The notes beneath the pieces were generated by a model that ran no database searches, had not been told where the DNA came from, and was given only the letters and a program-made list of their open reading frames with translations. The position numbers and the translations under genes were made by a program. Positions 3,334-32,916 of a stretch of DNA of 34,456 bases are shown here, piece after piece. Each line of letters starts with the position of its first letter. Within the stretch, counting starts at the first letter, position 1. This DNA comes from Candidatus Woesebacteria bacterium RBG_13_46_13 (GTDB taxonomy: Bacteria > Patescibacteriota > Microgenomatia > UBA8517), in the NCBI GenBank assembly GCA_001791995.1, contig MGFR01000002.1, positions 1 through 34,456 on the forward strand, given 5' to 3'.

Positions 3334-3334
3334 C

Positions 3335-4383: not shown

Positions 4384-4393
4384 GCTTCGTTTG

Positions 4394-4465
4394 TCGGGGT
4401 GCTGGGAATTGAACCCAGTGCCTCTCGGACCCGAACCGAGCGGTCTACCGATGACCTACACCCCG
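4394..4465 (-). tRNA. tRNA-Pro (anticodon CGG), CCA not encoded
   Basis: Cloverleaf: acceptor CGGGGTG/CACCCCG, D arm GGTC/GACC, anticodon arm CTCGG-TTCGGGT-CCGAG, T arm CTGGG-TTCAATT-CCCAG. Confidence 0.95.
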
Positions 4466-4468
4466 GGA

Positions 4469-4543
4469 TGGTGCCCCTAGCCGGAATTGAACCGACATCT
4501 TACCCTTAGGACGGGTCTGCTCTGTCCGTTGAGCTACAGGGGC
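4469..4543 (-). tRNA. tRNA-Arg (anticodon CCT), CCA encoded
   Basis: Acceptor GCCCCTG/TAGGGGC, D arm GCTC/GAGC, anticodon arm (G)ACCC-GTCCTAA-GGGT(A), T arm GTCGG-TTCAATT-CCGGC, ends ACCA. Confidence 0.92.
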
Positions 4544-4551
4544 GCATGGAA

Positions 4552-4560
4552 ATTATACCA
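4552..4560 (-). promoter_or_regulatory. Extended -10 promoter for the tRNA pair
   Basis: TG-G-TATAAT on the minus strand, 8 nt upstream of the tRNA-Arg 5' end. Confidence 0.7.
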
Positions 4561-4570
4561 CAAGCCTTAC

Positions 4571-5747: not shown

Positions 5748-5792
5748 ATTATACGCTTACCTCTTGTTAGGCGCAAAAAATGCCCATATAAT
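5748..5792. promoter_or_regulatory. Divergent -10 elements (PEGA gene and mreB)
   Basis: TATAAT on minus at 5748-5753, 7 nt before ATG 5740; TATAAT on plus at 5787-5792. Confidence 0.55.
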
Positions 5793-5811
5793 GCGTCCAA
5801 TCCCCTAAACC

Positions 5812-8361: not shown

Positions 8362-9642
8362 ATGAGATTCGTCAGTGGCTTGATAGGATTTATCCGTAGG
8401 TACAGCGTACTTTTTGTGCTGGTATCGATTTTCTTGATTAAAACCCCACCTTTCTACCTTTTTCCACCCATAAAGAGTTCTCTTCTAACCACCCACACCC
8501 TTTCCCGTCTTTTTATTCTTTTGGCCTTTGCTGGAATTTATTGGGAGGAGATAAGAGAGAAGGCTAAGCCTTTAGGGCAGAATGCAAAACTGCTTTTATG
8601 GTTCTTTGTCGTTTATCTTATTTTTCAATCTCTTTCTCTCGTCGGAGCCTCAAATGTCATCGGCTTCCTGCAAAGATATAAAGATGTTGTGTTTCCGGGC
8701 CTTCTTTTGTTTGTGGTTGTGGCCAGGAGGATAAAAAGAGAAAAAGTAGTTCTAATATTCCTTCTGGCGGCCAGTGTGAATTTTGTTTACCAGATGATAA
8801 TGTTTTTCTTACCCCACATCTTTAGAAGCTGGGGGAACGAATTGGTTTACTCCGGTCATTTAGAATTGGTTCTTATCAATCTCGAAAGAGGCCGGATGTT
8901 TATAGAAACGTACGATGAGATAGCAATACCGTTTATATTTTTTCTCCTTGCCAAGCATAACGGTAGGTGGGCACGGATAGGCTTGATTGCCATCTTTTTG
9001 ATGGTCGCGCTGCCCAGCTTTCTTTCCAACTTCCGCTCGCGTGCGGGAATACTTATCATTGCATTTTTAGCCTCTTTTCTCTTTTTGACGGGCCGGAAAA
9101 TTAAAGAGAAGATTGTCCTTGTGTGTCTTTTCCTGTTCTTGGCCATGACCGCGGTTATCGTTTCGAATACATTCTTCGGCTTTTCGGTGGTGGACAGATT
9201 TGCTCTTAGGGATACCCGGGAAGATGTGGAAACTCTTCTGTATCGGGCCGAAAACATCGGAACCTCTGTTGATATGGGAATTTCCCAGCCGCTAACGGGG
9301 ATAGGTTTGGGCAACTATTTTGATAACCTGGCTACGAGTAAAAAAATGAGCAAATCCCTTTTTAACTGGGTTCAGAGAGAGGCCGAGATTGCATCAACTA
9401 ATCCCCACGACATTTTTTTGCAAACCCTTTCGGAGACTGGAGTATTAAGCTTAATTTTCGTAATTATGCTTTTAGGGTACTTTGCTTATTCAGATATTAT
9501 TGCTCTAAAGTCTAAGGATTATTTGACCAAGGCTCTTATTATTGCCTTTTGGACACTTTTCTCGTATTCACTTTTTAATCCCACAACCACCCTGGGTTAT
9601 AACTCACTATTTTGGCTTTTACGGGGACTAATTATTTTATGA
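8362..9642 (+). CDS. O-antigen ligase/O-oligosaccharyltransferase-like (Wzy_C) membrane protein, type A copy 1
   Basis: Multi-TM; SNFRSRAG; loop R...I...MGISQPLTGIGLGNY; NPHDIFLQTLSETG. Paralog of 21950-23257. Confidence 0.85.
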   Translation: MRFVSGLIGFIRRYSVLFVLVSIFLIKTPPFYLFPPIKSSLLTTHTLSRLFILLAFAGIYWEEIREKAKPLGQNAKLLLWFFVVYLIFQSLSLVGASNVIGFLQRYKDVVFPGLLLFVVVARRIKREKVVLIFLLAASVNFVYQMIMFFLPHIFRSWGNELVYSGHLELVLINLERGRMFIETYDEIAIPFIFFLLAKHNGRWARIGLIAIFLMVALPSFLSNFRSRAGILIIAFLASFLFLTGRKIKEKIVLVCLFLFLAMTAVIVSNTFFGFSVVDRFALRDTREDVETLLYRAENIGTSVDMGISQPLTGIGLGNYFDNLATSKKMSKSLFNWVQREAEIASTNPHDIFLQTLSETGVLSLIFVIMLLGYFAYSDIIALKSKDYLTKALIIAFWTLFSYSLFNPTTTLGYNSLFWLLRGLIIL

Positions 9643-10628
9643 GAGTCATTATCGACGGGCACATGCTGGGCAGGAACGAGGGCGGTAACGAACGCTATGT
9701 AAAAGGGATAATTAAAGGCTTATCTCCCCTTAAAAATATTAAAACAAGAATTTACAGGAGCCACACCAGGGGTGTAGTCGCGGATCTTAAACGCGTATTT
9801 ATCGATTTACCGCGCCAGGCAGAAGGGTTTAGGGCCGACATTGTTCACGCAACCTACATCGGTCCTCTTTGGGGAAGAGGAAGACTGGTCTTGACGGTTC
9901 ATGACTTTCTTTTCAGGCGGAATCCCGAATTTTTCTCCCTCAAAGAGCAGCTGGTGTTTGGCCTGCTTCTTCCGTTATGTTTGAAACGTACCTCGGCGGT
10001 AATTGTGCCGTCGAATTTTGTCAAAAAGGAAGCCGTAAAATTCTACCCTTGGCTTAAAAATAAGGTTTTCGTGACTTACGAGGCAGCCGACGGAGTTTTT
10101 TCGTATAAACGGTCTAAAAAAGCCCGGAAGCCTTATCTTCTTGCCTTCAACAGTAAAAACCCCAAGAAGAATATCGCCAGGGTAATCGCTGCTTATGGGA
10201 TAGTTCAAAAAAGCCTTCCCCAGACGGAATTGTTGGTCGTCGGGCCCCGCGTGGCCGCAGGAGAAGGTGTGACTTTCGTAGAAAATGTCGGTGAGCGCAA
10301 GTTGGCGCAGCTATACCACGGATGCGAGTGTCTGGTTTATTTCTCGCTATACGAAGGCTTCGGCTTACCCATTCTTGAGGCTTTCATTGGAGGAGTGGCC
10401 GTCGTTGCCTCGGATATCCCCGTTCACCGGGAAATTGCCGGGAACGCAGCCCTTTTCGCAAAACCGAAAAACCCTCAAGATTTGGCGGATAAGATCATTA
10501 AATTATTAGGCAACCCTTCTCTGAAGGCAAAGCTGGTTCGAAAAGGAAGAGAAAGAGCGGCCACCTTTAGTTGGGAAAAAACCGGCAAGGAGACGGCAGC
10601 AATTTACAGGAGGGTTCTTAAGCCATGA
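9639..10628 (+). CDS. Glycosyltransferase family 4 (mannosyltransferase-like)
   Basis: MRVIIDGH, LTVHD, SLYEGFGLPILEA, VASDIPVHREIAG, FSWEKT. ATG overlaps the upstream TGA (ATGA). Confidence 0.92.
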   Translation: MRVIIDGHMLGRNEGGNERYVKGIIKGLSPLKNIKTRIYRSHTRGVVADLKRVFIDLPRQAEGFRADIVHATYIGPLWGRGRLVLTVHDFLFRRNPEFFSLKEQLVFGLLLPLCLKRTSAVIVPSNFVKKEAVKFYPWLKNKVFVTYEAADGVFSYKRSKKARKPYLLAFNSKNPKKNIARVIAAYGIVQKSLPQTELLVVGPRVAAGEGVTFVENVGERKLAQLYHGCECLVYFSLYEGFGLPILEAFIGGVAVVASDIPVHREIAGNAALFAKPKNPQDLADKIIKLLGNPSLKAKLVRKGRERAATFSWEKTGKETAAIYRRVLKP

Positions 10629-11725
10629 GAATTGCCATCATTGGGGTCCGCGGTGTCCCCGTCATCTATAGCGGCTTTGAGACGCTGGCAGAGAAGCTCT
10701 CCGTGGGTCTGGTAAGAAAGGGGCACAGTTTAACCGTCTATTCGAGAAGGGGCTATGTCAACCCCGAGAGAAGCTCTTACAAAGGGGTAAAAATAATTAC
10801 TCTTCCTGCCCCCGGAGGCAAAAACTGGGAAACTTTTGTGCACAGCCTCGCTTCGACCTTGCACGCCTGTATTAAGGGGAAATATGAGCTTATTTACTTT
10901 GTCGGGGTAGGCAGCACAATTTTTAGTATTTTACCCAGGATTTTGGGCATAAAAACCGTGGTCAATGTCGACGGACTGGATTGGCGTAGGGAAAAGTGGG
11001 GGCCAGTCGGGAAGGTTTATTTGGCTTTTTCGGAAGTTCTGGCCTGCTTTCTTCCCAACAGGGTTATTACCGACTCCTTATATATAAAGAGGTATTACCG
11101 CAGAAAATACGGGAAAGAAACCGTTTATCTGCCTTACGGCTTCGAACCTTATACGGGTAAAAACAGGCAAATACTGGCCAGGCTAGGACTTTCCGCGGGA
11201 AAATATATTGTCTGGGTGGGTCGGCTGGTGCCGGATAACCATACGGATGAGCTTATTAGGGCATTTAAGAGCCTTGAGACCCCCTTGAAATGTGTTGTCG
11301 TGGGAGATGATCGGCTAAACGGTGGATATAAGCGGAAAATTAAAAATCTTGCCGGGGGTGAGGCTCGCATCATCTTTACAGGCTTTTTGGACAGGGAGAA
11401 GTATTCGGCTTTGGTTAAAAACGCTTTGTGTTATGTGGAGACCAAGCGCTCCGGAGGGACCCATCCCTCCTTGGTCGAGGCGATGGGCTTTGGGACTTTG
11501 GTTATCTCGAATAGCCATTCGGCAAACAGAGAAGTTGCGGGGGCCGGAGCGATTTATTACCAGAAGGGATCGGTCAAAAGTTTAGTCAAGGCGGTAAAGG
11601 TGGCCGTTAAAGGGCGGGGTACGGCCAAACTTCGGAAGATTAGCCTGAACATTGCCAAAAGCAGATATTCTTGGACTCCAATAATTAGGGCATACGAAGA
11701 TCTGTTCAGCAGCCTTACTGGATAG
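10625..11725 (+). CDS. Glycosyltransferase family 4 (DUF1972/Cps2T-WchF-like N-terminus)
   Basis: MRIAIIGVRGVPVIYSGFETLAE, NVDGLDWRREKW, VGRLVPDN, GGTHPSLVEAM, YSW. Confidence 0.9.
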   Translation: MRIAIIGVRGVPVIYSGFETLAEKLSVGLVRKGHSLTVYSRRGYVNPERSSYKGVKIITLPAPGGKNWETFVHSLASTLHACIKGKYELIYFVGVGSTIFSILPRILGIKTVVNVDGLDWRREKWGPVGKVYLAFSEVLACFLPNRVITDSLYIKRYYRRKYGKETVYLPYGFEPYTGKNRQILARLGLSAGKYIVWVGRLVPDNHTDELIRAFKSLETPLKCVVVGDDRLNGGYKRKIKNLAGGEARIIFTGFLDREKYSALVKNALCYVETKRSGGTHPSLVEAMGFGTLVISNSHSANREVAGAGAIYYQKGSVKSLVKAVKVAVKGRGTAKLRKISLNIAKSRYSWTPIIRAYEDLFSSLTG

Positions 11726-12527
11726 AACCGATGACGAAGTCTTGGAAGTTGAAATTGGGTGTCCAAATTTCCAGGAAGGAGCCGCTGTTTAAGAGCTTAA
11801 GTTCCCCGAAATAGAAGGCCCCGTCCCTCTTCAGTGCTTTAATTTTGGCCTTTACGCTAATATACCTGACGGAATCTAAGGTTCCCGCATTGAAATTTCC
11901 GTAATAGTCATTTTCAATGACCGAAGTCGCTTTTTGGTTCTTGGAAACTACTTCAAAAACCACATTTTCACCGTCAAAATATTTATCGCCTATCTTTATC
12001 GCGTCATACTCCCAGGGGTAGGCATACTTTTTGGTTAGATAAACCGTTTTTTCCACATATTCATCGTTGAACGGCTCTTTGGATATTTCCATAATGGTTC
12101 CCGTAATCAGAGTTTTGTTGGTCTCAATTTCGATGGGTGTTCCGACAACCAAACTCGAACGCTTGAACGAATATTTTTGGCTCTTGTCGTTGTAGCTAGC
12201 CGAAAGCTTAACTGTTAAGAATATATCGTACTTGTTATCGGGGCGGGTTTTGTCGAATGAAGGGTAATAGCGAACCGAAGCTATTTGCGCAACCGGCTGT
12301 CCCAAGAGCGAGTATTCGGTATCATCCTTGGCGATTGCCCGTAAAAAGTAGGCATCGGGCCTTGAGGTTACTGACCACCAGAGACCTTGGGAAACCTGCA
12401 TTTTAATATAGACGACCCGGTTATTTGGCTTGGCAAGTTTTAATAAAGCGAAGAGGACAATAAGAGCAGGAATCAAGACCAGAAAAACGAGCAGCAGGGG
12501 TAGGGCTTTCTTTCTTTTCGCCGACAT
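11715..12527 (-). CDS. Membrane-anchored hypothetical protein (DUF4330-like), copy 1
   Basis: Basic N-terminus plus TM; two internally similar beta-rich halves. Clear paralog of 23208-24011 (QGLWW, VRYYP, YDIFLTVKL, VGTPIE, FNFQDF). DUF label is by resemblance only. Confidence 0.65.
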   Translation of the reverse strand: MSAKRKKALPLLLVFLVLIPALIVLFALLKLAKPNNRVVYIKMQVSQGLWWSVTSRPDAYFLRAIAKDDTEYSLLGQPVAQIASVRYYPSFDKTRPDNKYDIFLTVKLSASYNDKSQKYSFKRSSLVVGTPIEIETNKTLITGTIMEISKEPFNDEYVEKTVYLTKKYAYPWEYDAIKIGDKYFDGENVVFEVVSKNQKATSVIENDYYGNFNAGTLDSVRYISVKAKIKALKRDGAFYFGELKLLNSGSFLEIWTPNFNFQDFVIGSIQ

Positions 12528-12562: not shown

Positions 12563-13639
12563 ATGAAAATCGTCAGACACTTCGCGATTATTTTTACAAC
12601 AATTATCCTTTTCTTGGGAGGGATTGGTTACAATCTTCTGCCTGTAGAAATAATAGCGGTACTCATCTCTTGTTATCTCTGCCTTCTGGCTGCAGTTGGC
12701 AACAAAAGATTTCTTTTACCTAAGGGTTTTGGAGTATTTGTCCTTTTCTTAGCTGCCCTGGTGGCTCATTCGTATTGGGAAGAAAAAATCCTCGTTACGA
12801 ATTATTTCATCATGTATTTGGCTGGGGGATTGTTTTGGATAGCCTTTTATAACCTTAGGTCTTATTTCGAGAAATATTACGGCTTAATGATTGTTTTACT
12901 GGCAATTGCCTTCGGGTTTTTATTTTTTTTGTTCGCAAAAGGAGGCGATATCGGAACCTGGAGCCTGTTCTTAACCTCCTCAACCTACAAGAACCATAAC
13001 CACATCGGAGATATCTGGGCTTTAACGCTTGCGGTAATTTTCTATACATCTCTTAATAAGGCAAAACTTTGGCATTTCCTTTTAGGATTGGTGGGAGTGT
13101 ATCTGATGGCAATTTCCCTATCCCGTTCAGCCTATGCCGCGCTTTTTGCTGGCGTTATTTTTGTAGCCTTCAGAAAGGGATGGATTAAAAAAGCCAGATA
13201 TGTTTCTTTGGCTACCCTGACAGTCTGTGCTGCGCTTTTGGTTTATGCCGGAACCCAAAAGACAACCTTGTTTGCACGACCTTACTATATTCAAGCCGTC
13301 GTTGGCTTTTTAAGGAATCCCTTAGGGGTAGGGATGGGTAATTTCAGCATTATCTCTGCGGATCCAATAAATCACCTGCTGGGTTTTAAAGATTTCGCCG
13401 GTTTTACCCACAATATCGTTCTTGAAGTTCTGGTTGGTTTGGGAATTTTCTCTCTCCCTTTCATCATCTGGTTCTTTCTCGTCTGCAGGAGCGTCTGGCA
13501 GAAATCTAAAACCAGGCTGTTCTCTTCAATGATATTCGTAGTGCTCTCGGTAAACCTGTTGCTTGACAGTACTTATAATATTCCTACAATGTTATGGCTT
13601 TGGTTTATGTCCATCGGGCTTGCCCAGGCGGAAGAATGA
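12563..13639 (+). CDS. O-antigen ligase-like (Wzy_C) membrane protein, type B copy 1
   Basis: Multi-TM; NHNHIGD, SLSRSA, RPYY...NPLGVGMGNF, THNIVLE. Paralog of 29916-30980. Confidence 0.82.
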   Translation: MKIVRHFAIIFTTIILFLGGIGYNLLPVEIIAVLISCYLCLLAAVGNKRFLLPKGFGVFVLFLAALVAHSYWEEKILVTNYFIMYLAGGLFWIAFYNLRSYFEKYYGLMIVLLAIAFGFLFFLFAKGGDIGTWSLFLTSSTYKNHNHIGDIWALTLAVIFYTSLNKAKLWHFLLGLVGVYLMAISLSRSAYAALFAGVIFVAFRKGWIKKARYVSLATLTVCAALLVYAGTQKTTLFARPYYIQAVVGFLRNPLGVGMGNFSIISADPINHLLGFKDFAGFTHNIVLEVLVGLGIFSLPFIIWFFLVCRSVWQKSKTRLFSSMIFVVLSVNLLLDSTYNIPTMLWLWFMSIGLAQAEE

Positions 13640-14427
13640 AGGTTGATAAAGAATATTTTCTGAGCCAGGCGGGGTTTAGTGTCAGGGTGGTTTTTAAACC
13701 CACCGAGTTCGGCTACGCACAGAAAGTGCTGATTTCTTCCTTTCAAAAAGCTTGGGCTGGTTTTCTTTCCCGCCGTTCAAAAAAGGTTGATTTTACGGTT
13801 GTTGTTTCTTCGGACGCGGGAGATAAAGAAATCCTGGTCAGGGGGGGCAGGCGATATTATTACCTGACCTATACGCGTGATTTTGCGCACGGCAAAATCG
13901 ACACCTACTACACGGTTAACCTCAGGGGACTGGACCTTCTTTTTAGGGAGATATTTGCCTTTCTTATTCGCAAGGACGGCTTTTTGCTGCACGCATCAAG
14001 CGTGGTGGACAGAAAAGGAGCACTCTCCGTTTTTATGGCCCGTTCGGGAGGGGGAAAGACCACAACAGCCAGTCTTTATAAGGGTGGAGGCTATTATAAA
14101 TTTGGCGACGACATTATTCTTGTCAGGAAAATGTCTGGACGTTGGAAATTTTTCAGCCCCCCTTTTATTGAGAAAAACGAGATTCCTCGTAAAAACCAAG
14201 CTTCGAGGGCAAAGTTTTATGTAGTCAAAAAGGCGCTCAAACCCAACCTTGCTCTTATAAAGGAAAAGAAAGTTCTGCTTCCTTTTTTGCTTGGACAAAT
14301 ATGGCTAAACCGTGGTACTTTAGAAAAACCGGTATTAAAGACCGCTTTATTGTTCCTGATGGAAAACAACTTCTCTGAACTTGGGGTAGTCCTTAACGGT
14401 AGAAAGATGCGAAAGATTATCAAATGA
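13636..14427 (+). CDS. HPr kinase-related P-loop kinase (putative peptide kinase)
   Basis: GFLLHASSV, Walker A ARSGGGKTT, KFGDDIILVR. Start at ATGA overlap 13636; immediately upstream of PqqD. Confidence 0.78.
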   Translation: MKVDKEYFLSQAGFSVRVVFKPTEFGYAQKVLISSFQKAWAGFLSRRSKKVDFTVVVSSDAGDKEILVRGGRRYYYLTYTRDFAHGKIDTYYTVNLRGLDLLFREIFAFLIRKDGFLLHASSVVDRKGALSVFMARSGGGKTTTASLYKGGGYYKFGDDIILVRKMSGRWKFFSPPFIEKNEIPRKNQASRAKFYVVKKALKPNLALIKEKKVLLPFLLGQIWLNRGTLEKPVLKTALLFLMENNFSELGVVLNGRKMRKIIK

Positions 14428-14681
14428 GGCTAAAAAAAGGGGTTTTGATTCAAAAATTGGGCGACACGTTCGTTGCCTACGACAACGATGCCTCCGTAAT
14501 GCATGAGCTAAACGAGGTGGCCTACATTATTCTTTCGGAGATTGAAAAAAGAAAAGGCAAAAAGGAAATCTTACTAAAAATAATGAAAGCCTTTTCCGTT
14601 TCCGAAAAAGAGGCCAAAAAAGACTTGGACGAGTTTGTTCAGGATCTTAAAAAGGTCGACTTGATTGTGGAGAAGAAATAA
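14424..14681 (+). CDS. PqqD family protein / RiPP recognition element (RRE)
   Basis: 85 aa with three-strand then three-helix layout; HELNEVAYIILSEI...EILLKI...FSVSEKEAKKDLDEFVQDL...LI matches the PqqD pattern. Confidence 0.88.
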   Translation: MRLKKGVLIQKLGDTFVAYDNDASVMHELNEVAYIILSEIEKRKGKKEILLKIMKAFSVSEKEAKKDLDEFVQDLKKVDLIVEKK

Positions 14682-15805
14682 TCCAGTGCATCTTTTGAAA
14701 AGATAACCCTTAGCCGTTTGGATAACGGAAGGGTTGAAAAAACCAGAGAAAAAATTAACTTTTTTCCCGCCTCGATGGCTTTTGTATCGGTGTCAAAAGG
14801 GGAAGTACGAGTAGCATAAAAACCTGCCAGGCGCATAAAAAGAGGGATTCGGGCTTCTTTGGGTAAACTTAGGCCCCCAAAAAACTTGTTAAACACCAAG
14901 ACAGAGGGGTAGATAATATACTCATAACCATATCTCCTTGCCCTATTTAAGACGATATCCATATCGGGTTTGTCTTGGCCAATAACGTTTGCGATAAGCT
15001 CCATCCTATGGATTCCCTGAAAATTGTGATGGAAAAGGTGCAAAAGGAGGTAAAGGAGCAGATCTTCTTTTATCAGTATGGGGAACCGGTTATTCCCGAC
15101 TTTTACCGCTTTTGCATTAGAAAATAATTCACGCCCGTAGACGGCGATTGAAGGAATTAACTCATTAAATCTTAAGGCTTTGGTAAATCCTATCGCCGGA
15201 GCAAAATGAACGTCGATTATTACGGCATAGGGTTTTACCTTCTTGACGAAGGAAATTTGGGAATATTTATTTACCGGTTTATGCAAAAGTGTGGGTTCGA
15301 TTGCCTCATAACCCAGCTGCTTAAAAATTTTTCCGATTTGGGGAAAGTCGTGTAGTCTAACAAGGATGTCGGCGTCAAAATAAAGTCTCTTGGGAATTTT
15401 CCCCGAATAGATAAGTTGAATCGGTAACCCCTTAAGCAGCACATAGTCGATATCTGATTTCTTTAGCCTTTTGTTTAAAAGCCCGAGCTCGGTTAAATAG
15501 GTGAGGGATTGGGAAAGATAAACGTGCGAAAGCGCTATCATCCGTCCATTACGTAAAACTTTCTCGACTTTTCCCAAGATTTCATTTTTGTTTAATATTC
15601 CGTCGGACTTGAGGTTGTTGTCGCCTTTGGTAATATAATTTGCTTCATCGGGAATATATATCACCCTGTGGACGATGACCTTTTCTTCTCTCCTGAAAGC
15701 AACAACGTCGTTTACTTTGTAAGATCTGCCTTTTTTGATAAACGGTTTATCGGTGGGCAAAATTAAGGGGGCCATGCTTGTGCCGAAGGATAAAGGGTGG
15801 CGCAT
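14639..15805 (-). CDS. S26 (S24/S26) serine peptidase fused to NTP_transf_5-like nucleotidyltransferase, copy 1
   Basis: N-terminus GTSMAP...DVVAF...VHRV...ITKGDNN...ILGKV (Ser/His type, no TM); C-terminus VLLKG...KRLYFDADILV...IDVHF...LLLHLFHH. Confidence 0.85.
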   Translation of the reverse strand: MRHPLSFGTSMAPLILPTDKPFIKKGRSYKVNDVVAFRREEKVIVHRVIYIPDEANYITKGDNNLKSDGILNKNEILGKVEKVLRNGRMIALSHVYLSQSLTYLTELGLLNKRLKKSDIDYVLLKGLPIQLIYSGKIPKRLYFDADILVRLHDFPQIGKIFKQLGYEAIEPTLLHKPVNKYSQISFVKKVKPYAVIIDVHFAPAIGFTKALRFNELIPSIAVYGRELFSNAKAVKVGNNRFPILIKEDLLLYLLLHLFHHNFQGIHRMELIANVIGQDKPDMDIVLNRARRYGYEYIIYPSVLVFNKFFGGLSLPKEARIPLFMRLAGFYATRTSPFDTDTKAIEAGKKLIFSLVFSTLPLSKRLRVIFSKDALDYFFSTIKSTFLRS

Positions 15806-15943
15806 CTAACAGGTACGGGCCGCGAGCATGAATTCCGAATCGATAGCGCTTCTGACTACACTTTTCCCATAGAAAGAAATTATGCTGACCTTTGAGGATT
15901 TGATCTTGGGCCTATGGTAACGCTTTAGCTTTTCGCCAGACAT
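15806..15943 (-). CDS. Putative RiPP-like precursor peptide P2 (45 aa)
   Basis: Manual translation MSGEKLKRYHRPKIKSSKVSIISFYGKSVVRSAIDSEFMLAARTC*; its TAG directly abuts the peptidase-NTase ATG. Paralogous to P1 and P3. Confidence 0.85.
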   Translation of the reverse strand: MSGEKLKRYHRPKIKSSKVSIISFYGKSVVRSAIDSEFMLAARTC

Positions 15944-15948
15944 AATTA

Positions 15949-16089
15949 TTAACCGCCTGAAACGCCTATCGCCAAAAGATATTCCGAATTCGAAGGATTT
16001 CTATAGGAACTTTCTCCGTAAAACGAAACAGGGGAAACTTTTGAGGATTTTATCCTTGGCTTGAGATAGATCCTTTTGGGCTTTGTCAT
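15949..16089 (-). CDS. Putative RiPP-like precursor peptide P1 (46 aa)
   Basis: MTKPKRIYLKPRIKSSKVSPVSFYGESSYRNPSNSEYLLAIGVSGG*; ATG overlaps the upstream stop (ATGA); 5-nt gap to P2. Confidence 0.85.
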   Translation of the reverse strand: MTKPKRIYLKPRIKSSKVSPVSFYGESSYRNPSNSEYLLAIGVSGG

Positions 16090-16709
16090 TGAGCCTTTCT
16101 TATCAATTCTAAATATAGTCTTTCCTCGGATTGAGTGTCAATAAGACTGATTATCTGCGTCAATTCGACAGTGTCGCCGATTCCGATATCTGTAAGCTTA
16201 ATTTGTTTTATTCCATCTGCTGTATTCTGTGTAACTACCACTGCGTTCACATCAGCTGGGGTAAACCTGGTTTTGATTTTTTTGTCGTCTTTGGCTATTT
16301 GGATAAAGTATGCATACTGGGTCTGTTTGGTTTGGTCCTCGGGCCCAAAATCAACTACTTCACCGAAGAGCTTCAACGATACGGATGCGTCCTTGATAAG
16401 CTCCTTCCTTTCCGACAAGGAATTAAACTGTGTTGCGTAATCAAACAATTTCTGCTCGGCGGATCTGGTTTGCGAGGGAGAAGGGGTGTTTGTGGGTATT
16501 GCGACATCTCGGGACTCCTCCTGGGTCGGAGCGGGAGACGGCCTGAGCAATTTAAAGAAGCTGCCCAGGCTTCCATTGGACACGTAATAGACGATCTCGG
16601 CCACAATTACCAGAAAGAATATTCCCAGAACAATAAATAGGATTTTTCTCAGGGGATTTCCGCCTTGGGGCGTTACTATCGCGCTTGTTCCTTGGGCAGG
16701 TCCATCCAT
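16086..16709 (-). CDS. Single-TM membrane-anchored hypothetical protein, copy 1 (directly upstream of the precursors)
   Basis: TM ILFIVLGIFFLVIVAEIVYY, Pro/Thr linker, C-terminal domain homologous to 32305-32916. Start ATG 16709 preferred over 16745. Confidence 0.75.
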   Translation of the reverse strand: MDGPAQGTSAIVTPQGGNPLRKILFIVLGIFFLVIVAEIVYYVSNGSLGSFFKLLRPSPAPTQEESRDVAIPTNTPSPSQTRSAEQKLFDYATQFNSLSERKELIKDASVSLKLFGEVVDFGPEDQTKQTQYAYFIQIAKDDKKIKTRFTPADVNAVVVTQNTADGIKQIKLTDIGIGDTVELTQIISLIDTQSEERLYLELIRKAQ

Positions 16710-16750
16710 TTTTTCAGTATAATAGACAAAGCTATTTAAATGCAATTAAA

Positions 16751-21949: not shown

Positions 21950-23257
21950 GTGCTGAAATTAATCAAACAAAATTCCGTCTTGGCGCTTACGCTGTTGGCT
22001 ATTTTTTTGGTTAAAATTCCCCCTTTTTATTTTCTCGGAATCACTAGTACCTTATTAACTAGTCATACGCTGGCCCGCTATCTAATCTTTGCTATTTTCC
22101 TTTTTAGTGCTTGGCAGGTTTTCTTCGGGAAGGGAAAAGCTATCCCGCAGAGCGGGAAAAATCTTATTCTTCTCTTTTTGGCCTATTTTTTCTTCCAGTC
22201 GTTTTCGGTTGTCGGGGCCGAGAGTGTCGAGGCCTTTGCCAGGGTCTATAAAGACATCGTTTTTCCCGGGTTTTTCCTTTTCGTGGTTTTATTCCAAAGC
22301 GGAATTGCCAGGGGTTTGGCCAAGATTTTTGTTGCCGCAGGTATCATCAACTTCTTTTACCAGATGGCGATACTTCTTGTGCCTTCCGCCTTCAGGCTTT
22401 TCGGGGAGCGCTTTATCTATAGCGAACATTTCCAGCTGGTGGATATCAATATCCAAAGAGGCCGGCTTTTTGTCGAAACCTATGACGAGATTGCTATCCC
22501 GGTTTTACTTTTTCTTCTGTTCAAAGAAAAAAGAAGCAAAGTCCGGCTAGGTTACATTTTGGTCCTGACGATGATTATCGTACCCAGCTTACTTTCCAAT
22601 TTCAGAACCAGGTTCTTGATGCTTTTCTTTGCCTTGGCTGCCTCTTTCTTGATAGTTGTTGGGGGGAGGCTTAAGGCCAAGCTGACCCTTATCGGTTCTC
22701 TTTTTGTCCTGGGATTTGTCGCGCACTCCGTTTCGGTTTACTTTTTTGGGTTTTCATTCCTAAACAGACTGGCGCTTGAGGACCCCGGGGAGGATGTCCA
22801 GACCATCCAGTCCAGATTCGCCAACATTAAAGCCTCTCTCGATATGGGACTGGCCCGTCCTTTAAGCGGGGTGGGGCTGAATAATTACTATTTTCATCTG
22901 TCCGAAGGCAGAAAGGGCCTTTTTTCGATTTCCCTTAATCTGGCCAGGCAGCGTGAGGCGGAATTTGCTTCGGTGAATCCCCACAATATCTTTGCCCAGA
23001 TTGTCTCCGAGACCGGATTGGTAAGCCTTGGCCTTTACCTTTTTATCCTGGGGTTTTTTGCCAAAGGCGATATCGGTATCGTCAAAGGCAAGGACGGACT
23101 GAAAAAATCTCTGGCAATTTCTTTCTGGACTCTATTTATATACTCGATTTTTAACCCCACCACCACACTGGCCTATAATTCTCTTTTCTGGATTTTGCGG
23201 GCCGCCCTTACTCAAGACTTACCACTTCGAAGTCCCGGAAATCGAAGTTTGGGGTAG
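21950..23257 (+). CDS. O-antigen ligase/O-oligosaccharyltransferase-like membrane protein, type A copy 2
   Basis: IPPFYF...HTLAR, VETYDEIAIP, SNFRTR, PLSGVGLNNY, NPHNIFAQ..SETG, NPTTTLAYNSLFW; all shared with 8362-9642. Confidence 0.85.
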   Translation: MLKLIKQNSVLALTLLAIFLVKIPPFYFLGITSTLLTSHTLARYLIFAIFLFSAWQVFFGKGKAIPQSGKNLILLFLAYFFFQSFSVVGAESVEAFARVYKDIVFPGFFLFVVLFQSGIARGLAKIFVAAGIINFFYQMAILLVPSAFRLFGERFIYSEHFQLVDINIQRGRLFVETYDEIAIPVLLFLLFKEKRSKVRLGYILVLTMIIVPSLLSNFRTRFLMLFFALAASFLIVVGGRLKAKLTLIGSLFVLGFVAHSVSVYFFGFSFLNRLALEDPGEDVQTIQSRFANIKASLDMGLARPLSGVGLNNYYFHLSEGRKGLFSISLNLARQREAEFASVNPHNIFAQIVSETGLVSLGLYLFILGFFAKGDIGIVKGKDGLKKSLAISFWTLFIYSIFNPTTTLAYNSLFWILRAALTQDLPLRSPGNRSLG

Positions 23258-24011
23258 ACACCGAAAAGGTCGCTCCCGGCCTGACCGCCTTTTCTTCTCC
23301 GAAAAAATAAAATCCGTCTGCGTATTTAAGCTTTATACTCGCCAGAACGGAAATTTCCAGGGTTGAGCCGGTAGGCAGGACCAAATATCTATCTTCACCC
23401 AGAGTTTTTGAGATATTGGAATAACCCAAAACGTTTTTGGAGATGACCTTAAAAACAACCTCTTTTCCGTCCGAAAATTCATCGCCGATATTTATGGCGT
23501 TATACTCCCAGCGGTAAGCCGGAATTTTTCTCAAGAGCACTTTCTTGTCGACATATTTTTCTTCGAAGGGATTCTCGTTCATATCGATGACAGTTCCGGT
23601 AACCAAAGAACGGTTCAGTTCCAGCTCGATGGGTGAGCCGACGGAGAGGGGGGAGTTTTTGAAAGAATATTTTCCGCCCTTTCCGGATGAGGCCAGTTTT
23701 AGAGTCAGATAGATATTGTATTTATCTTCAATGTCGGGATAATATCTGACATCCGTAACTTGAGCAATGGTTCTGCCCAGAAGATCGTGTTCGGAATCAC
23801 CCCTGCTTATCGCTTTGGCGAACCAAAAGGCGGGTTTTTGGGTGGAGGCCCACCATAGTCCCTGGGCGACCTTGACCTTGGCATAAACGAAATTTTCTTT
23901 GGGGGTCAGAATTTTGAGAACGATAAAGGTGGCGGTGATAACCAGAATTCCGAGAAACAAAGTAATGGCAAAAAGGGAAAATCTTTGCTTTTTGTTTTTG
24001 GGTAAGTTCAC
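23208..24011 (-). CDS. Membrane-anchored hypothetical protein (DUF4330-like), copy 2
   Basis: Paralog of 11715-12527; GTG start. Confidence 0.65.
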   Translation of the reverse strand: MNLPKNKKQRFSLFAITLFLGILVITATFIVLKILTPKENFVYAKVKVAQGLWWASTQKPAFWFAKAISRGDSEHDLLGRTIAQVTDVRYYPDIEDKYNIYLTLKLASSGKGGKYSFKNSPLSVGSPIELELNRSLVTGTVIDMNENPFEEKYVDKKVLLRKIPAYRWEYNAINIGDEFSDGKEVVFKVISKNVLGYSNISKTLGEDRYLVLPTGSTLEISVLASIKLKYADGFYFFGEEKAVRPGATFSVSTPNFDFRDFEVVSLE

Positions 24012-29915: not shown

Positions 29916-30980
29916 ATGAAAAAGTTGTTACCGGTGTTTATTTTGGGGGTATTGCTCATACTTGGCAGCTTGGGAAAAAATTCCGTCTCGTTTTTGCTTG
30001 CCCAACTTTCATTAATTTCCGTTTTGTTTTTTTGGACTCTTTTTACAAGAGAAGCGAAATCTCCTCCGGGATTTATCCTTTATCTAATTTTTCTCGGAAT
30101 TGTTGTTTGGAAATTCATTTCCGGCTCCCGAGACGGCGGTGCGGATTATCTGTATCTTTTTGCAGGTGGGGGACTATTATGGTTTTCCGCATTTAATCAG
30201 AAAGAAAAGTGGGGAGGTTATTTGGAAAAATTGATTCTTGTTTTCGGTCTGGCTATGGCCGCCCTCTATGTTCTCTGGCTAATCTTTTCTCCCGGCCTTA
30301 TCCTGCCGCAGAGCCTTTTTACTTTCTCCTCCGCCTTTAAAAACCATAACCACATAGGAGACTTGTGGGCGATTGTGCTGTTGGTTGTCGCTCGTAAGCT
30401 TGTAGCCAAAGGCGGCCTCTATTATTGGTTGCTTGCCGTTCTGGGACTTATCCTGATGTACCTTTCCTTTTCCCGCTCGGCGGTAGTTGCTTTCCTTGCG
30501 GGAGCAATTTATCTGTTCGGAAACATCGATTATCTCAAGAGGAATAAATACATTTTCACCTTTTTGTCTTTGGGGATAACGGCGGTTTTTCTTCTAACCA
30601 GTATCAACAAATCGATATTTTTCTCAAGACCTTATTTTACTCAGGCCATTTCCGGACTAAGCAAATATCCTTCCGGGGTGGGAATGGGCAACTTCAAACT
30701 CGTCTCCTCGCGTTTTGATGTGGGAACTTTTTCCAGCATTGTCCACAATCTGGTCTTGGAGGTAATGGTGGGGTTGGGCTGGATTGGCGTAGTATTTGTT
30801 GTTTGGCTGGGGAATGTTCTTTGGCAGGGAGTGGTTGGGGCAAAGAATAGAATAGCCTACGCCGTATTTTTAGGGCTTACTGTTAATTTCCTTTTCGATT
30901 CGACCTATCTTATTCCCTCGATGGTCTGGCTTTGGTTTTTGAGTCTGGGTTTAAGCCGTGGGCAGCATAATCTTCGCTGA
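29916..30980 (+). CDS. O-antigen ligase-like membrane protein, type B copy 2
   Basis: KNHNHIGDLW, SFSRSA, SRPYF, GVGMGNF, VHNLVLE, DSTYLIPSMVWLWF; all shared with 12563-13639. Confidence 0.82.
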   Translation: MKKLLPVFILGVLLILGSLGKNSVSFLLAQLSLISVLFFWTLFTREAKSPPGFILYLIFLGIVVWKFISGSRDGGADYLYLFAGGGLLWFSAFNQKEKWGGYLEKLILVFGLAMAALYVLWLIFSPGLILPQSLFTFSSAFKNHNHIGDLWAIVLLVVARKLVAKGGLYYWLLAVLGLILMYLSFSRSAVVAFLAGAIYLFGNIDYLKRNKYIFTFLSLGITAVFLLTSINKSIFFSRPYFTQAISGLSKYPSGVGMGNFKLVSSRFDVGTFSSIVHNLVLEVMVGLGWIGVVFVVWLGNVLWQGVVGAKNRIAYAVFLGLTVNFLFDSTYLIPSMVWLWFLSLGLSRGQHNLR

Positions 30981-32169
30981 TTAACCCCTTTCTTTTCTGA
31001 TTCCGGGTTTTGATAAAAGAGCCAATAGCCAGAGGTATGAAACGCAGCGTTTTGGGAGACAACAACAACCTTAGCTTCAGGGACAAACCTGCGGGAGACA
31101 AAAGAAATACCAGCAGCAATCTTTTGACTCCCTGGAAAACCCTGTTGCCTGTGGAAAACGGGGAAATAAAAAGGGAGAGAAGATAAAGGGCATAGTCCTT
31201 TTTTCGGTTGGGAAAGGCCAGATCAAGATATTTTTCGGAAAGGATTAGGCCCAGATGCACGGGGCTGGGAACTCCGTACTTTTTGGAAAGCCTGAAAAGC
31301 CTTTTCCAGTCAAGACCCGACTCGGTCATTTTTTTTACCAACTCGATTCTAGATAGACCCTCGTAGTTGTGTCTATACCAATGCAGCAGAAGGTAAATGA
31401 CGAAAGTTTCTTTGTCCAGAATCTTAAACCTAGCCGACCCTTGCTTTACCGAGATGGAATTGGTGAAGAGGCTTTGTTCAAATTCCTTCACTTTCGGAAA
31501 CAGGCTGTTAAGATAGGTAAGCTTGGTGAAAGGGATTCCCAGACCTCTGTGTAAATCTACCCTAACGGGGAAAGGAAAAATATTTTTGGTAAGGGTAACC
31601 TCGGAGGCGTTTGTAAATTCCTTTGCGAAAAGGGTAGCGGGGGATTTTGTAAAACCCAAAGGGCTTAAGACCCGAATAACCTTTTTAAAGTCATCCTCGC
31701 GGACGAAAATATCACAATCGGCCAAAAGTCTGTTGGGGGGGGATTTTGCCCAGTGGAGGTAAGGAACAATTCCCCGCAGAACGATAAATTTTATCTTTGC
31801 CCTTTTAAGCGATTTTTCTACCTTTACCAGTTGGGATAGGTAAAAAGAGGATTGGGTATAGTAAAGATGCTCGAGGGCAATACGGGTGGAGCCCCTTTTT
31901 ATGGCGATAACCTTTCCGAGAATCTCGCCAAGGGCTATTTTCTTGTCCGGAAGTAAATTGTTGTCTCCTTTGGTGATGAAGTTTTTTCTGTCCGGGAAAG
32001 TGTAAACAATCCTGTGGGCGATGAGTTTGCCGGAGGCTAAGTAGGCTACGATATTGCCAGTGGAACAATCCTTTTGGTCTTCTATCTCCACCTTGTCTCC
32101 AGGCAAAAAAAGGGGGAACATACTCAGGTTTTGGGAAGTGTTTTTTAGCTGGCGCAGGGGCACTTTCAA
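30910..32169 (-). CDS. S26 peptidase-nucleotidyltransferase fusion, copy 2
   Basis: LSMFP...IVAY...AHRI...ITKGDNN...ILGKV; IVLRG...NRLLADCDIFV...VDLHR...LLLHWYRH. TTG start overlaps the P3 stop (TTGA). Confidence 0.83.
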   Translation of the reverse strand: MKVPLRQLKNTSQNLSMFPLFLPGDKVEIEDQKDCSTGNIVAYLASGKLIAHRIVYTFPDRKNFITKGDNNLLPDKKIALGEILGKVIAIKRGSTRIALEHLYYTQSSFYLSQLVKVEKSLKRAKIKFIVLRGIVPYLHWAKSPPNRLLADCDIFVREDDFKKVIRVLSPLGFTKSPATLFAKEFTNASEVTLTKNIFPFPVRVDLHRGLGIPFTKLTYLNSLFPKVKEFEQSLFTNSISVKQGSARFKILDKETFVIYLLLHWYRHNYEGLSRIELVKKMTESGLDWKRLFRLSKKYGVPSPVHLGLILSEKYLDLAFPNRKKDYALYLLSLFISPFSTGNRVFQGVKRLLLVFLLSPAGLSLKLRLLLSPKTLRFIPLAIGSFIKTRNQKRKGLISEDYAAHGLNPDSKTKARPSRE

Positions 32170-32304: not shown

Positions 32305-32916
32305 TCAGAAATGCTCCCTCTTAATCTCTAAATTTATAGTATCACCTGCATACGTATCAAGCAAGTTGCTTGAAGTTTTTATGACCACATAGTCCGACTC
32401 CTGAAGGTCTTTTATGGTTGCGTCCTTGGATTCACCCCCCCAGGTCACAATTTTTACTTCCATAATATCCAGCTCCTGTTGGGTAAACCTGTATCTTAAT
32501 ATGGCTCCTTTTTCGTCCTGTAATCCCAGATGGTACACATATTTAACCCTGTCGATTTCCACAATTTCGGGGATCGCTATGGCGGCCAATCCTTGGGCGA
32601 CCGTGGTATATTTAAGCTCCCTGTAAAAGGCGCCGCTCTGTTTGTCGGGAGTCATCCTGTCCAGAAATTTTCTGATTGCGGCCACCCTTTCTTCGTTAAG
32701 AGGTTTGGGAGCCAGGTCTTCAACCCCCAATGGCTGGTACTCTTGGCAGCCCAGAAGGCTGCATTTCTGGAAAGGATTTTTATAAAGGTAGACAGCCTCT
32801 GCCGCAACCGCAGTAACAAGAAGTACAAACAGGCTAAGAAGAACTAATATCAAAACCTTTGACCCCCGCGGCTTCCCTTGGGGTTGTGGTGTCTGGACGG
32901 CAGGTTCTAAATCCAT
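32305..32916 (-). CDS. Single-TM membrane-anchored hypothetical protein, copy 2 (directly upstream of P3)
   Basis: TM ending VAAEAVYLY; C-terminus YVYHLGL..RYRFTQQEL..V..IKDLQESDYV..LLDT..LEIKR aligns with 16086-16709. Confidence 0.75.
   Translation of the reverse strand: MDLEPAVQTPQPQGKPRGSKVLILVLLSLFVLLVTAVAAEAVYLYKNPFQKCSLLGCQEYQPLGVEDLAPKPLNEERVAAIRKFLDRMTPDKQSGAFYRELKYTTVAQGLAAIAIPEIVEIDRVKYVYHLGLQDEKGAILRYRFTQQELDIMEVKIVTWGGESKDATIKDLQESDYVVIKTSSNLLDTYAGDTINLEIKREHF

Follow-up and report, generated by a model that had tools for sequence, protein, structure and literature searches.

Linear polyphosphorylated peptides (LPPs) were described from the lppA-K-B-S-D-N cluster of Paenibacillus alginolyticus, and the clusters of this family, restricted to Bacillota according to the authors, are defined by TIGR02228, NTP_transf_5, PqqD, TIGR04249 and TIGR04352 (Popov et al., Nat Commun 2026 (May), PMC13381572). 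LppK phosphorylates the Ser three residues past the cleavage site and accepts neither Thr nor Tyr, and the NTP_transf_5 enzyme step failed in the published heterologous system (PMC13381572). LPPs are further marked by a polyphosphorylated core Ser and by a peptidase whose cleavage depends on the recognition protein. Phosphorylated lasso peptides of the paeninodin and pseudomycoidin type employ the kinase PadeK or PsmK and the nucleotidyltransferase PsmN; in paeninodin-type precursors, the C-terminal Ser receives a phosphate from an HprK homologue, in pseudomycoidin the nucleotidyltransferase adds a hexose to that phosphate, and in some cases the lasso tailoring transferase and the leader protease B2 form one fused protein (PMC8498205). 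Recognition proteins of both the lasso and the LPP type bind [Y/W]xxPx[L/V/I].

In the window, meaning here the whole analysed stretch of 34,456 nucleotides, two small ATG ORFs on the minus strand, P1 (15949..16089, 46 aa, MTKPKRIYLKPRIKSSKVSPVSFYGESSYRNPSNSEYLLAIGVSGG) and P2 (15806..15943, 45 aa, MSGEKLKRYHRPKIKSSKVSIISFYGKSVVRSAIDSEFMLAARTC), together with the paralogous gene P3 (32166..32303, minus strand, 45 aa), are likely to encode the precursor peptides of an LPP-type RiPP pathway, with a course of steps that would include a cut after Leu-Leu-Ala. The original prediction of two tandem peptides exactly filling a gap was borne out by the ORF listing, as P1 and P2 exactly occupy the space between the gene of a 219-aa single-pass membrane protein without family match (16086..16745, minus strand) and the 388-aa gene of fusion enzyme A (14639..15805, minus strand). 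The ATG of P1 overlaps the stop of the membrane-protein gene (ATGA), and the two are translationally coupled; P1 and P2 are spaced by 5 nt, and the TAG stop of P2 abuts the ATG of fusion enzyme A. A promoter-like element (16112..16141, minus strand, TTGACA-18-TATATT, 11/12) lies 22 nt upstream of the P1 start within the end of the membrane-protein gene, and similar 10-11/12 matches were found 5' of the first peptide gene in several related loci, which are designated by L numbers (L083, L005, L049/51/52 and L053/P3); with a regional count not above that of shuffled sequences, the element is suggestive only.

P3, the third copy, is located about 16 kb from the P1/P2 pair in a second cassette (B), where a paralogous single-pass membrane protein of 203 aa (32305..32916, minus strand) is encoded upstream and fusion enzyme B directly downstream; this cassette lacks both a recognition protein and a kinase. 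The consensus common to the three peptides and their tails, IGVSGG, ARTC and GVVS, proved correct as predicted, and when all six frames of the window were scanned, the motif turned up in the P1, P2 and P3 ORFs alone.

The three peptides are short and without a match in Pfam or NCBIfam, as would be expected of chance ORFs in an intergenic spacer, and a PDB profile search with the peptide family returned nothing meaningful. Nevertheless, they are far beyond chance, because a profile built from them finds ORFs at the syntenic position on unrelated metagenome and genome contigs with E values of 1e-13 to 1e-26. At about 18 of 20 related loci, this position is taken by an intact homologue of 42-50 aa, and about 40 distinct family peptides of this length were collected in all. 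In a collection of 5.8e9 sequences the profile matches 7 protein clusters, and in another of 1.84e9 it matches 26 representatives; every database match is 42-50 aa long except a 778-aa protein, of which just a short part aligns.

Selection was assessed from orthologues. Those of P1 in L001 (9864-9998), L083 and P0002 gave dN/dS of 0.07-0.13 where measurable, those of P2 (P0003, at L001 10001-10138, and the second L083 ORF) gave 0.11-0.26, and the P3 orthologue in L053 is near-identical with one residue changed (GAVS for GVVS). Over the orthologue pairs, dN/dS of 0.07-0.26 indicated purifying selection, with pS of 0.64-0.83 (saturated) against pN of 0.14-0.30, and a frameshift in a homologous locus, which would speak against the original prediction, affects the peptide gene in just one lineage (L050/L055) of about 20 loci. 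Reading frames that stay intact despite saturated synonymous divergence, dN/dS well below 1 and the lack of any Rfam match to the region leave next to no chance for an origin as random ORFs; an RNA element as the explanation of the region was likewise rejected, no Rfam family being found in 15400-16500. As predicted, and as judged from these substitution patterns, P1, P2 and P3 are translated genes under purifying selection. The companion claim of protein conservation despite nucleotide divergence holds for the orthologues but not for the three paralogues, which share 32-45% protein and 47-55% nucleotide identity among themselves.

All family members carry YxxPx[I/V/L], followed by KSSKVxx[IV]xFY[G]xxS with a two-residue offset against the LPP motif. 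A discrete PqqD-family RiPP recognition protein of 85 aa (14424..14681, plus strand, Pfam PqqD E 3.7e-11) is encoded convergently with fusion enzyme A; its nearest NCBIfam model is lasso_PqqD_Strm (E 1.1e-6), and its profile matched in the PDB TbiB1 (1.2e-10), TfuB1 (2.8e-8), PbaB1 (1.9e-7), LppB (6e-4) and PqqD (0.15). By these scores, the predicted recognition protein is of the lasso/LPP type and closer to lasso B1 proteins than to LppB. An NCBIfam match to WgkC of the tryglysin radical SAM system was dropped as generic PqqD similarity. The [Y/W]xxPx[L/V/I] motif, together with a PqqD-family protein matching lasso B1 and LppB, supports the earlier reading of the peptides as precursors.

The HprK/ScmC-like P-loop kinase (13594..14427, plus strand, 277 aa as listed) was assigned from ScmC family matches and fold, and judging from homologues its translation may start at Met ~13636. 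PF27840 (ScmC) is a precomputed match for the identical protein P0152 and for most kinase homologues, the Walker A motif S-G-G-G-K-T is invariant among the homologues, and the L009 orthologue matches Hpr_kinase_C (E 7.7e-6). The kinase matched TIGR04352 with E 0.063, below every curated cutoff. As its profile found generic P-loop matches alone among PDB sequences (ABC transporters, PEPCK), the class is a putative assignment at the fold level, where the AF2 model matches PEPCK (4.9e-9) and HPr kinase 1knx (9.5e-5).

Haft delineated two uncharacterised cassettes that also combine HprK-related kinases with PqqD relatives, the HPr-rel-A system (TIGR04352/TIGR04353) and SynChlorMet (ScmC TIGR04249, ScmD TIGR04248). 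Window proteins match TIGR04352, TIGR04353 and TIGR04248 weakly and the kinase family matches the ScmC Pfam model, but the scores are far under the curated cutoffs (12.4 vs 200, 20.4 vs 35 and 17.2 vs 100), and membership of the window in either cassette was rejected, since there are no radical SAM/SPASM genes in the window.

Fusion enzyme A is predicted to combine an N-terminal archaeal/SipW-type signal peptidase I domain (residues ~8-90) with an NTP_transf_5 domain, as supported by Pfam, TIGR02228 and fold, and its paralogue, fusion enzyme B (30910..32169, minus strand), is 34% identical to it. NTP_transf_5 (PF14907) matched above cutoff in both A (E 7.4e-24) and B (E 1.9e-16), TIGR02228 gave E 1.1e-11 and 1.7e-10 for the two proteins with 44.9 and 41 bits, below the curated cutoff of 51.85, and Pfam Peptidase_S24 matched A with E 0.0022. 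In the AF2 model of A (pLDDT 89.9), the transferase domain is nearest in fold to LnuA and ANT(2'')-Ia and the peptidase domain to SipA and LexA; fold comparison was used instead of the PDB sequence search, in which the fusion enzyme gave nothing but spurious GFP matches. Residues invariant across 33 fusion homologues comprise SM.P, H46-R47, G61-D62 (Gly-Asp-Asn), D68, D144/D146 and D198/H200. On sequence grounds, the enzyme set is conserved with its catalytic residues intact, and the predicted leader peptidase is a domain of the fusion protein rather than a separate protein. No relevant paper was found in the literature on PF14907 or on the combination of signal peptidase and nucleotidyltransferase in Patescibacteria.

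Lasso peptide precursors as a rule carry a YxxPxL leader with a penultimate Thr, and their core starts with Gly, Ala, Ser or Cys and has Asp/Glu at position 7-9. The YxxPx[I/L] leader motif, the lasso-like recognition protein and the presence of a kinase and a nucleotidyltransferase, both known lasso tailoring enzymes, might suggest that P1-P3 are lasso precursors with the cyclase and B2 protease encoded elsewhere. The chance of this is very slim, given that no Asn_synthase-type cyclase or transglutaminase-type B2 was found in the 34-kb window or among the called genes of L001, L002, L128, L129 and L130, neither candidate junction has Thr at -2, a macrolactam ring and a tail cannot both be made from a core of 3-7 residues, and the alternative core of 18-24 residues starts with Arg, Glu or Lys instead of Gly, Ala, Ser or Cys. 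The phosphorylated lasso peptides follow the same logic as the peptidase-transferase fusion and the terminal Ser/Thr seen here, and the recognition protein is closest to lasso B1 proteins; the difference is that there is neither a lasso cyclase nor a B2 cysteine protease here, the place of B2 being taken by a serine signal-peptidase-type domain. The product has to remain linear and could be just a few residues long.

In the LPP-type pathway proposed here, the Tyr-x-Lys-Pro-x-Ile segment would be bound as a beta-strand by the PqqD-family recognition protein, which would hand the peptide to the HprK/ScmC-like kinase for phosphorylation of a hydroxyl residue, most likely the Ser/Thr four residues past Leu-Leu-Ala, in most cases the last residue of the peptide. 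That site or its phosphate may then receive a nucleotide- or sugar-derived group from the nucleotidyltransferase domain of the fusion enzyme, and the signal-peptidase-I domain (Ser10/His46) would take off the leader, most likely by a cut after the near-invariant Leu-Leu-Ala, so that 3-7 residues are set free as the modified core. Analogy with LPPs and paeninodin-type lasso peptides is the basis for binding, phosphorylation, transfer, the cleavage position and export, as well as for any part that the coupled membrane protein and the Wzy_C protein would play.

From the pattern of conservation, we infer the cleavage site, with the leader most likely ending at Leu-Leu-Ala as assumed in the original prediction, and the modified residue as follows. 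A second conserved motif, Ser-Glu-Tyr-Leu-Leu-Ala, precedes the tail of 3-7 residues; 37 of the 40 family members have the Ala of Leu-Leu-Ala, directly followed by the variable part. The tails had been predicted to be divergent, and a variable part does exist, but it has a preferred length of four residues (24 of 40 peptides) and a Ser, Cys or Thr at the fixed +4 position in 29 of 38 tails, against a background of 0.20. As 9 of these 29 residues are Cys and LppK refuses even Thr or Tyr, phosphorylation at +4 cannot be the rule for every member. In the long-core relatives (L007, L009, L054, L022 and L130), found at loci with nitroreductase or radical SAM genes, the Cys-rich part starts 1-3 residues past 'LA'.

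The distance from the Tyr to the Leu-Leu-Ala cut is 33 residues, versus 16-17 in LPP and lasso leaders, while a second candidate site, Phe-Tyr-Gly, is found at the canonical distance. It is accordingly a realistic, though unlikely, alternative that the pathway is the same and the leader ends earlier, after [Ile/Val]-x-Phe-[Tyr/Phe]-[Gly/Ser/Ala/Asn] (after Gly25 in P1), giving a product of the C-terminal 18-24 residues that is phosphorylated on the Ser two or three residues past the cut and contains the Ser-Glu-Tyr-Leu-Leu-Ala motif and the terminal Ser/Cys/Thr. LppA is cleaved after Phe-Glu-Thr and phosphorylated at Ser+3, with Phe-3, Glu-2 and Thr-1 required for cleavage (PMC13381572), and the LppA leader rebuilt from the primers of that paper ends in YARPMVLSQQPVRFET before AQS, as compared with YLKPRIKSSKVSPVSFYG before ESS in P1. 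The earlier cut would also put Tyr at -18 and Pro at -15, near the -16/-13 of LPP, 20 of 40 peptides have Ser/Thr at +3 (p 2e-5) and about 70% have one somewhere from +1 to +3, and the aromatic -3 and small -1 residues are retained in most long-core relatives. However, position -1 is occupied by various residues (Gly 20, Asn 7, Ser 6, Ala 6, Tyr 1, Arg 1) where the Ala of Leu-Leu-Ala is nearly constant, the P2 orthologue group and the long-core relatives have no Ser at +3, the long-core relatives would keep an unmodified extension of 15-20 residues on their Cys-rich core, and the likeness to LppA beyond YxxP is without statistical support: the family profile scored the LppA N-terminus at 2.4 bits, a value equalled by 24 of 2000 shuffles. 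Homology to LppA over the whole leader found no support, as the YxxP part alone aligns.

With a peptide that is mostly conserved and varies in just 3-7 residues, P1-P3 could also be small accessory or regulatory proteins instead of substrates, for example ones folding or activating the recognition protein and the enzymes, with a functional 40-residue body and unconstrained tails. LppB is insoluble without its peptide, so that such peptides do stabilise their recognition protein, and in L004 the peptide gene remains with the membrane-protein gene, both apart from the enzymes. We consider this explanation highly doubtful, because the tails are constrained in length and by the Ser/Cys/Thr at +4, the same leader in relatives bears long Cys-rich C-terminal parts typical of RiPP cores beside nitroreductase or radical SAM genes, and a leader peptidase domain whose catalytic residues are intact is never missing.

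The neighbourhood of the presumed precursor genes may link them to the cell envelope. A relative of the membrane protein is encoded directly 5' of the peptide gene in most loci. An O-antigen ligase/polymerase-like Wzy_C membrane protein (12563..13639, plus strand, Pfam Wzy_C E 1.5e-8) adjoins the kinase gene, a position kept in L001, L004, L005 and L051, and a second Wzy_C-like protein (29916..30980, plus strand) is convergent with fusion enzyme B, an arrangement also seen in L053. A DUF4330-like protein of 270 aa (11715..12527, minus strand) was matched by Pfam with E 3e-5, below cutoff; its homologues adjoin the cluster in L001, L004, L005, L007, L009, L051 and L054, and those of L002 and L008 are no more than a few kb away from the fusion gene. 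The glycan genes of the window encode four Wzy_C, two GT4, GT2, WecG, Bac_transf, carbamoyltransferase and PMT_2 proteins. A bolder and improbable reading is that the mini-peptides are acceptors, not antibiotics or signals: the Wzy_C ligase-like protein and the glycan genes would build a peptide-linked, possibly phosphodiester-linked, surface glycan, with the terminal Ser/Cys/Thr as the attachment point and the coupled membrane protein as the presenter. If true, candidate-phyla-radiation bacteria would prime envelope glycoconjugates with a ribosomal peptide.

To our knowledge, very few ribosomal natural-product pathways are known from the Patescibacteria/Microgenomates, which have tiny genomes. 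Together with its relatives, the window indicates that the LPPs have a large sister group, with at least 120 clusters of fused peptidase-transferase proteins, which the source labels assign to these taxa. Consisting of a leader and about four residues with one nucleophile, the peptides may offer a minimal substrate for the uncharacterised NTP_transf_5 enzyme, the occurrence of the same leader on long Cys-rich cores beside nitroreductase or radical SAM genes suggests a modular platform of leader and peptidase serving several chemistries, and the constant association with Wzy_C and glycan genes provides a testable link of the peptides to the cell envelope.

The pathway claimed in the original prediction is supported but not anonymous, its enzyme set being that of the LPP family published in 2026. 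[quoted passage not shown] Different from the LPPs, the peptidase and the transferase form one polypeptide in this window, and no ABC transporter was found among the scanned window ORFs, whereas LPP clusters have an MsbA-like exporter; in the relative L009, an ABC transporter gene does lie beside the cluster (ABC_tran E 1.1e-32). The conserved single-pass membrane protein, Wzy_C and DUF4330-like neighbours also set the present locus apart, Wzy_C occurring in just 6 of 126 LPP neighbourhoods. The LPP precursor motif, YxxPxVLxHQxIxFETxxS, differs from the leader here after YxxP, and the LPP C termini are highly variable, with a core of 45 residues in LppA, in contrast to peptides of 42-50 aa ending in Ser-Glu-Tyr-Leu-Leu-Ala and 3-7 further residues. 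Going by relatives with 40-42% identity, the hosts are labelled Patescibacteria, Roizmanbacteria and Microgenomates instead of Bacillota, and the pathway described here is probably a fused, miniaturised form of the LPP type in candidate-phyla-radiation bacteria.

The original prediction placed two tandem precursor peptide genes within 15806-16089, and both are present as ATG-initiated ORFs on the minus strand, P1 (15949-16089, 46 aa) and P2 (15806-15943, 45 aa), which are separated by 5 bases and abut both neighbours: the start of P1 and the stop of the 219-aa gene upstream overlap in ATGA, and the 388-aa gene (14639-15805) begins with its ATG directly after the TAG of P2. The third copy, P3 (32166-32303), is arranged likewise in the order 203-aa gene, P3 and 419-aa gene, and a six-frame scan of the whole window found no peptide motif outside P1, P2 and P3. 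On alignment of the three peptides, gaps are confined to the N-terminal region, M, K, K, Y, P, SSK, FY, R, E and L are common to all, and the predicted consensus with the tails IGVSGG (P1), ARTC (P2) and GVVS (P3) proved correct. A promoter-like element (TTGACA-18-TATATT, 11 of 12 matched; 16112-16141, minus strand) lies 22 nt before P1 within the end of the membrane-protein gene, with comparable elements ahead of the first peptide gene in the related loci L083, L005, L049/51/52 and L053, at most a suggestive hint that the peptide genes have a strong promoter of their own. No Rfam family was matched in the P1/P2 region.

Searching 5.8e9 proteins with a three-peptide profile recovered seven clusters, all of 43-45 aa, and a nine-peptide profile searched against 1.84e9 representatives returned 26 matches, 25 of them 42-50 aa long and the lone exception a short partial match in a 778-aa protein. 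The contigs compared encode related peptides or homologues of the enzyme downstream, and in almost all of these loci a six-frame profile scan located an unbroken peptide ORF in the syntenic place (E 1e-13 to 1e-26 for close relatives). The tandem pair of one P1-like and one P2-like ORF also occurs in L001 and L083, and the P3 orthologue in L053 differs by one substitution. Orthologous peptide pairs gave pN of 0.14-0.30 versus pS of 0.64-0.83 (Nei-Gojobori) and, where dS was unsaturated, dN/dS of 0.07-0.26, which bears out the claimed purifying selection; a reading of the peptides as chance ORFs is given almost no credence. The expectation of unbroken frames in homologous loci held in nearly all of them and failed in the L050/L055 lineage alone, where the peptide gene (4776-4925) is split over two frames in an A run at CCAAAAAAATAAG, the first ending in ...HYQKPKK-stop and the second reading KNKSSKIKTISFYNQQ...LLAMTIH-stop. 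L050 and L055 are identical sequences from two JGI metagenomes, with the membrane-protein gene missing upstream of the split gene, and the split could be a pseudogene, an A-run assembly error or a +1 frameshift site.

The anatomy of the family was drawn from about 40 distinct members. A basic N-terminus is followed by Tyr-x-Lys-Pro-x-[Ile/Val]-[Lys/Arg]-[Ser/Thr]-[Ser/Thr]-Lys, by [Ile/Val]-x-[Phe/Leu]-[Tyr/Phe]-[Gly/Ser/Ala/Asn], by a partly conserved spacer that frequently reads Arg-x-Ser-Leu-Arg-[Asn/Ser]-x-x-Asp, and by Ser-Glu-Tyr-Leu-Leu-Ala, the Ala of which is kept in 37/40, before a 3-7-residue tail. These tails, predicted to be divergent, are variable in their residues but non-random: 24/40 have four residues, and at +4, 29/38 have one of Ser (18), Cys (9) and Thr (2), which together have a background of 0.20. 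One of these three residues also ends the peptide in 28/40.

The 388-aa and 419-aa proteins (34% identity) are fusions of an N-terminal archaeal/SipW-type signal peptidase I domain (TIGR02228; E 1e-11 and 2e-10, respectively) with a following NTP_transf_5 domain (E 7e-24 and 2e-16), an architecture found in at least 120 protein clusters. Among 33 fusion homologues, Ser-Met-x-Pro, His-Arg and Gly-Asp-Asn are invariant in the peptidase, and Asp-x-Asp and Asp-x-His in the transferase. The folds nearest to the AF2 model of the fusion enzyme (pLDDT 89.9) are the O-nucleotidylyltransferases LnuA and ANT(2'')-Ia, with SipA and LexA nearest to its N-terminal domain. Convergent with the 388-aa gene lie genes for an 85-aa PqqD-family recognition protein (14424-14681, plus strand) and a 277-aa P-loop protein (13594-14427, plus strand), the putative kinase; homologues of the latter match ScmC, its orthologue in L009 matches Hpr_kinase_C, and its AF2 model (pLDDT 86.5) resembles PEPCK and HPr kinase. 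In its listed form the kinase ORF runs 46 nt into the end of the Wzy_C gene (13594-13639), and its true start is probably near 13636, because homologues begin at its Met15 position. The recognition-protein profile from related loci matched TbiB1 (1.2e-10), TfuB1, PbaB1 (1.9e-7) and LppB (6e-4) in the PDB, with PqqD itself ranking behind these four; by these matches the protein is assigned to the clade binding [Y/W]xxPx[L/V/I], a motif present in every one of these peptides.

It is probable that the peptides are substrates of a pathway of the linear polyphosphorylated peptide (LPP) type, with much less confidence in each chemical detail. The recognition protein would bind Tyr-x-Lys-Pro-x-Ile, the kinase would phosphorylate a hydroxyl near the peptide C-terminus, the transferase domain of the fusion enzyme would elaborate the phosphorylated hydroxyl, and the fused peptidase domain would cut the leader after Leu-Leu-Ala, giving a very short modified peptide. 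That the peptides are instead accessory proteins and not substrates is unlikely. Their being lasso precursors is more improbable still, and the window genes include neither an Asn-synthetase-like cyclase nor a transglutaminase-like protease, nor a YcaO or radical SAM enzyme.

The signal-peptidase rule (small -1, hydrophobic -3) is satisfied at two sites of the peptides. Site 2, after Leu-Leu-Ala, appears somewhat the likelier leader cut, being the better conserved and the point where variability begins and the Cys-rich cores of relatives start. An LPP-like cut at site 1, after Phe-Tyr-Gly in the same pathway, is a doubtful sub-alternative: this site mirrors the precursor LppA (cuts marked by slashes; leader from the paper's primers, MEENTKREQKLYARPMVLSQQPVRFET/AQS versus ...YLKPRIKSSKVSPVSFYG/ESS in P1), retains the canonical Tyr-to-cut distance (-18 versus -16) and has Ser/Thr at +3 in half of the members, but its -1 residue is variable and the family profile aligns with LppA around YxxP alone, at 2.4 bits equalled by 24/2000 shuffles. 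Three candidates are proposed for the modified residue. The near-terminal Ser/Cys/Thr would match the paeninodin precedent and the LPP Ser near the cut; against it, this residue is Cys in nine members, and the kinase LppK rejected even Thr and Tyr (PMC13381572). The second candidate is the Ser two or three residues past Phe-Tyr-Gly, and the third is the leader [Ser/Thr][Ser/Thr] pair, present in 40/40 mini-core members and absent from long-core relatives.

These distant relatives keep the leader (YxKPxIK...LLA) and continue after 'LA' with a long Cys-rich sequence of 17-35 residues, as in the loci L007 (Roizmanbacteria; 5787-5963, ...SEELLAA/CNCGGGTTSCCSGTYCFGSLCSE), L009 (5734-5910, ...MFLAA/CYYSCGDVCGPGCGVDCHIPC), L054 (1452-1649, ...VLLA/MPCSNGLDCGVCGGGNCVL) and L130 (~10131-10304, ...TYLAQ/GCYSCWEYTGDCAWDEC), with a similar Cys-rich continuation in L022 (564-779, minus strand). 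The L130 peptide lies amid three radical SAM genes, and a nitroreductase gene adjoins that of L054. Because the same leader precedes Cys-rich cores near radical SAM or nitroreductase genes, the leader and the fused peptidase-transferase seem to form a platform common to several RiPP chemistries. In L129 (1-3400), YcaO and nitroreductase genes adjoin a 51-aa mini-tailed peptide ending in Ser (1571-1726, minus strand, ...KLFA/ENLS), and this locus also encodes a QueC-PqqD fusion, PqqD, ScmC, a separate S24 peptidase, a sulfatase and NTP_transf_5. The L054 cluster has been interrupted by mobile material, which lies between the kinase and full-length fusion genes (2509-2847 and 3056-4899) and consists of a truncated 112-aa peptidase-domain copy and, after it, an ATPase gene and a pair resembling a toxin-antitoxin system.

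At least 15 loci share the order membrane protein, peptide(s) and fusion enzyme; the recognition-protein, kinase and Wzy_C genes follow in convergent orientation, and a DUF4330-like gene comes last. The single-pass membrane protein genes (16086-16745 and 32305-32916) matched no family. Except in L050/L055, such a gene immediately precedes that of the peptide and either overlaps or abuts it; in L004, the membrane protein (9047-9860) and peptide stay paired ~1.9 kb from the enzymes. The coupled membrane protein and the Wzy_C protein may be involved in product export and role. The remainder of the window is an envelope-glycan locus with four Wzy_C, two GT4, GT2, WecG, Bac_transf, carbamoyltransferase, PMT_2 and GDSL genes. 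Each peptide cassette is flanked by one of the four Wzy_C paralogues (O-antigen ligase/polymerase-like; 8362-9642, 12563-13639, 21950-23257 and 29916-30980), and there are two DUF4330-like paralogues (11715-12527 and 23208-24011), a homologue of which adjoins the cluster in most related loci. Related loci are labelled Patescibacteria, Roizmanbacteria or Microgenomates. Three MAGs are labelled Gammaproteobacteria; the records of L008, L009, L022 and L128 are titled as 'uncultured Gammaproteobacteria' MAGs, carry the same cluster and have AT-rich, CPR-like gene content. Possible explanations are an error of binning or classification and a range of the system beyond Patescibacteria.

In paeninodin-type lasso precursors the C-terminal Ser is phosphorylated by HprK homologues, and in pseudomycoidin a nucleotidyltransferase, sometimes fused to the leader protease, adds hexose to the Ser phosphate (PMC8498205). 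LPPs were described in May 2026 by Popov et al. (PMC13381572); their clusters lie within capsular polysaccharide loci of Bacillota and encode one to three precursors each, with the motif YxxPxVLxHQxIxFETxxS. The peptidase LppS cuts the leader after Thr-1 only with LppB presenting it, core Ser3 is polyphosphorylated, and the transferase LppN was inactive in the heterologous host (PMC13381572). The supplementary table lists the models TIGR02228, NTP_transf_5, PqqD and, for the kinase, TIGR04249/TIGR04352, and Wzy_C occurs in only 6/126 LPP neighbourhoods (PMC13381572). Judged by sequence, the enzyme set of the window is LPP-type, because its proteins match models of that table, the putative kinase below every curated cutoff, and the recognition profile matches LppB, and this kind of system has been known since 2026, so it is not categorically new. 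Different from the LPP systems, the peptidase and transferase of the window are fused, no exporter is encoded in the window, the membrane protein, Wzy_C and the DUF4330-like protein are new conserved partners, the leader is in two parts, the cores are miniature, and the apparent hosts, by the labels of relatives, belong to the candidate phyla radiation, in contrast to the reported restriction of LPPs to Bacillota.
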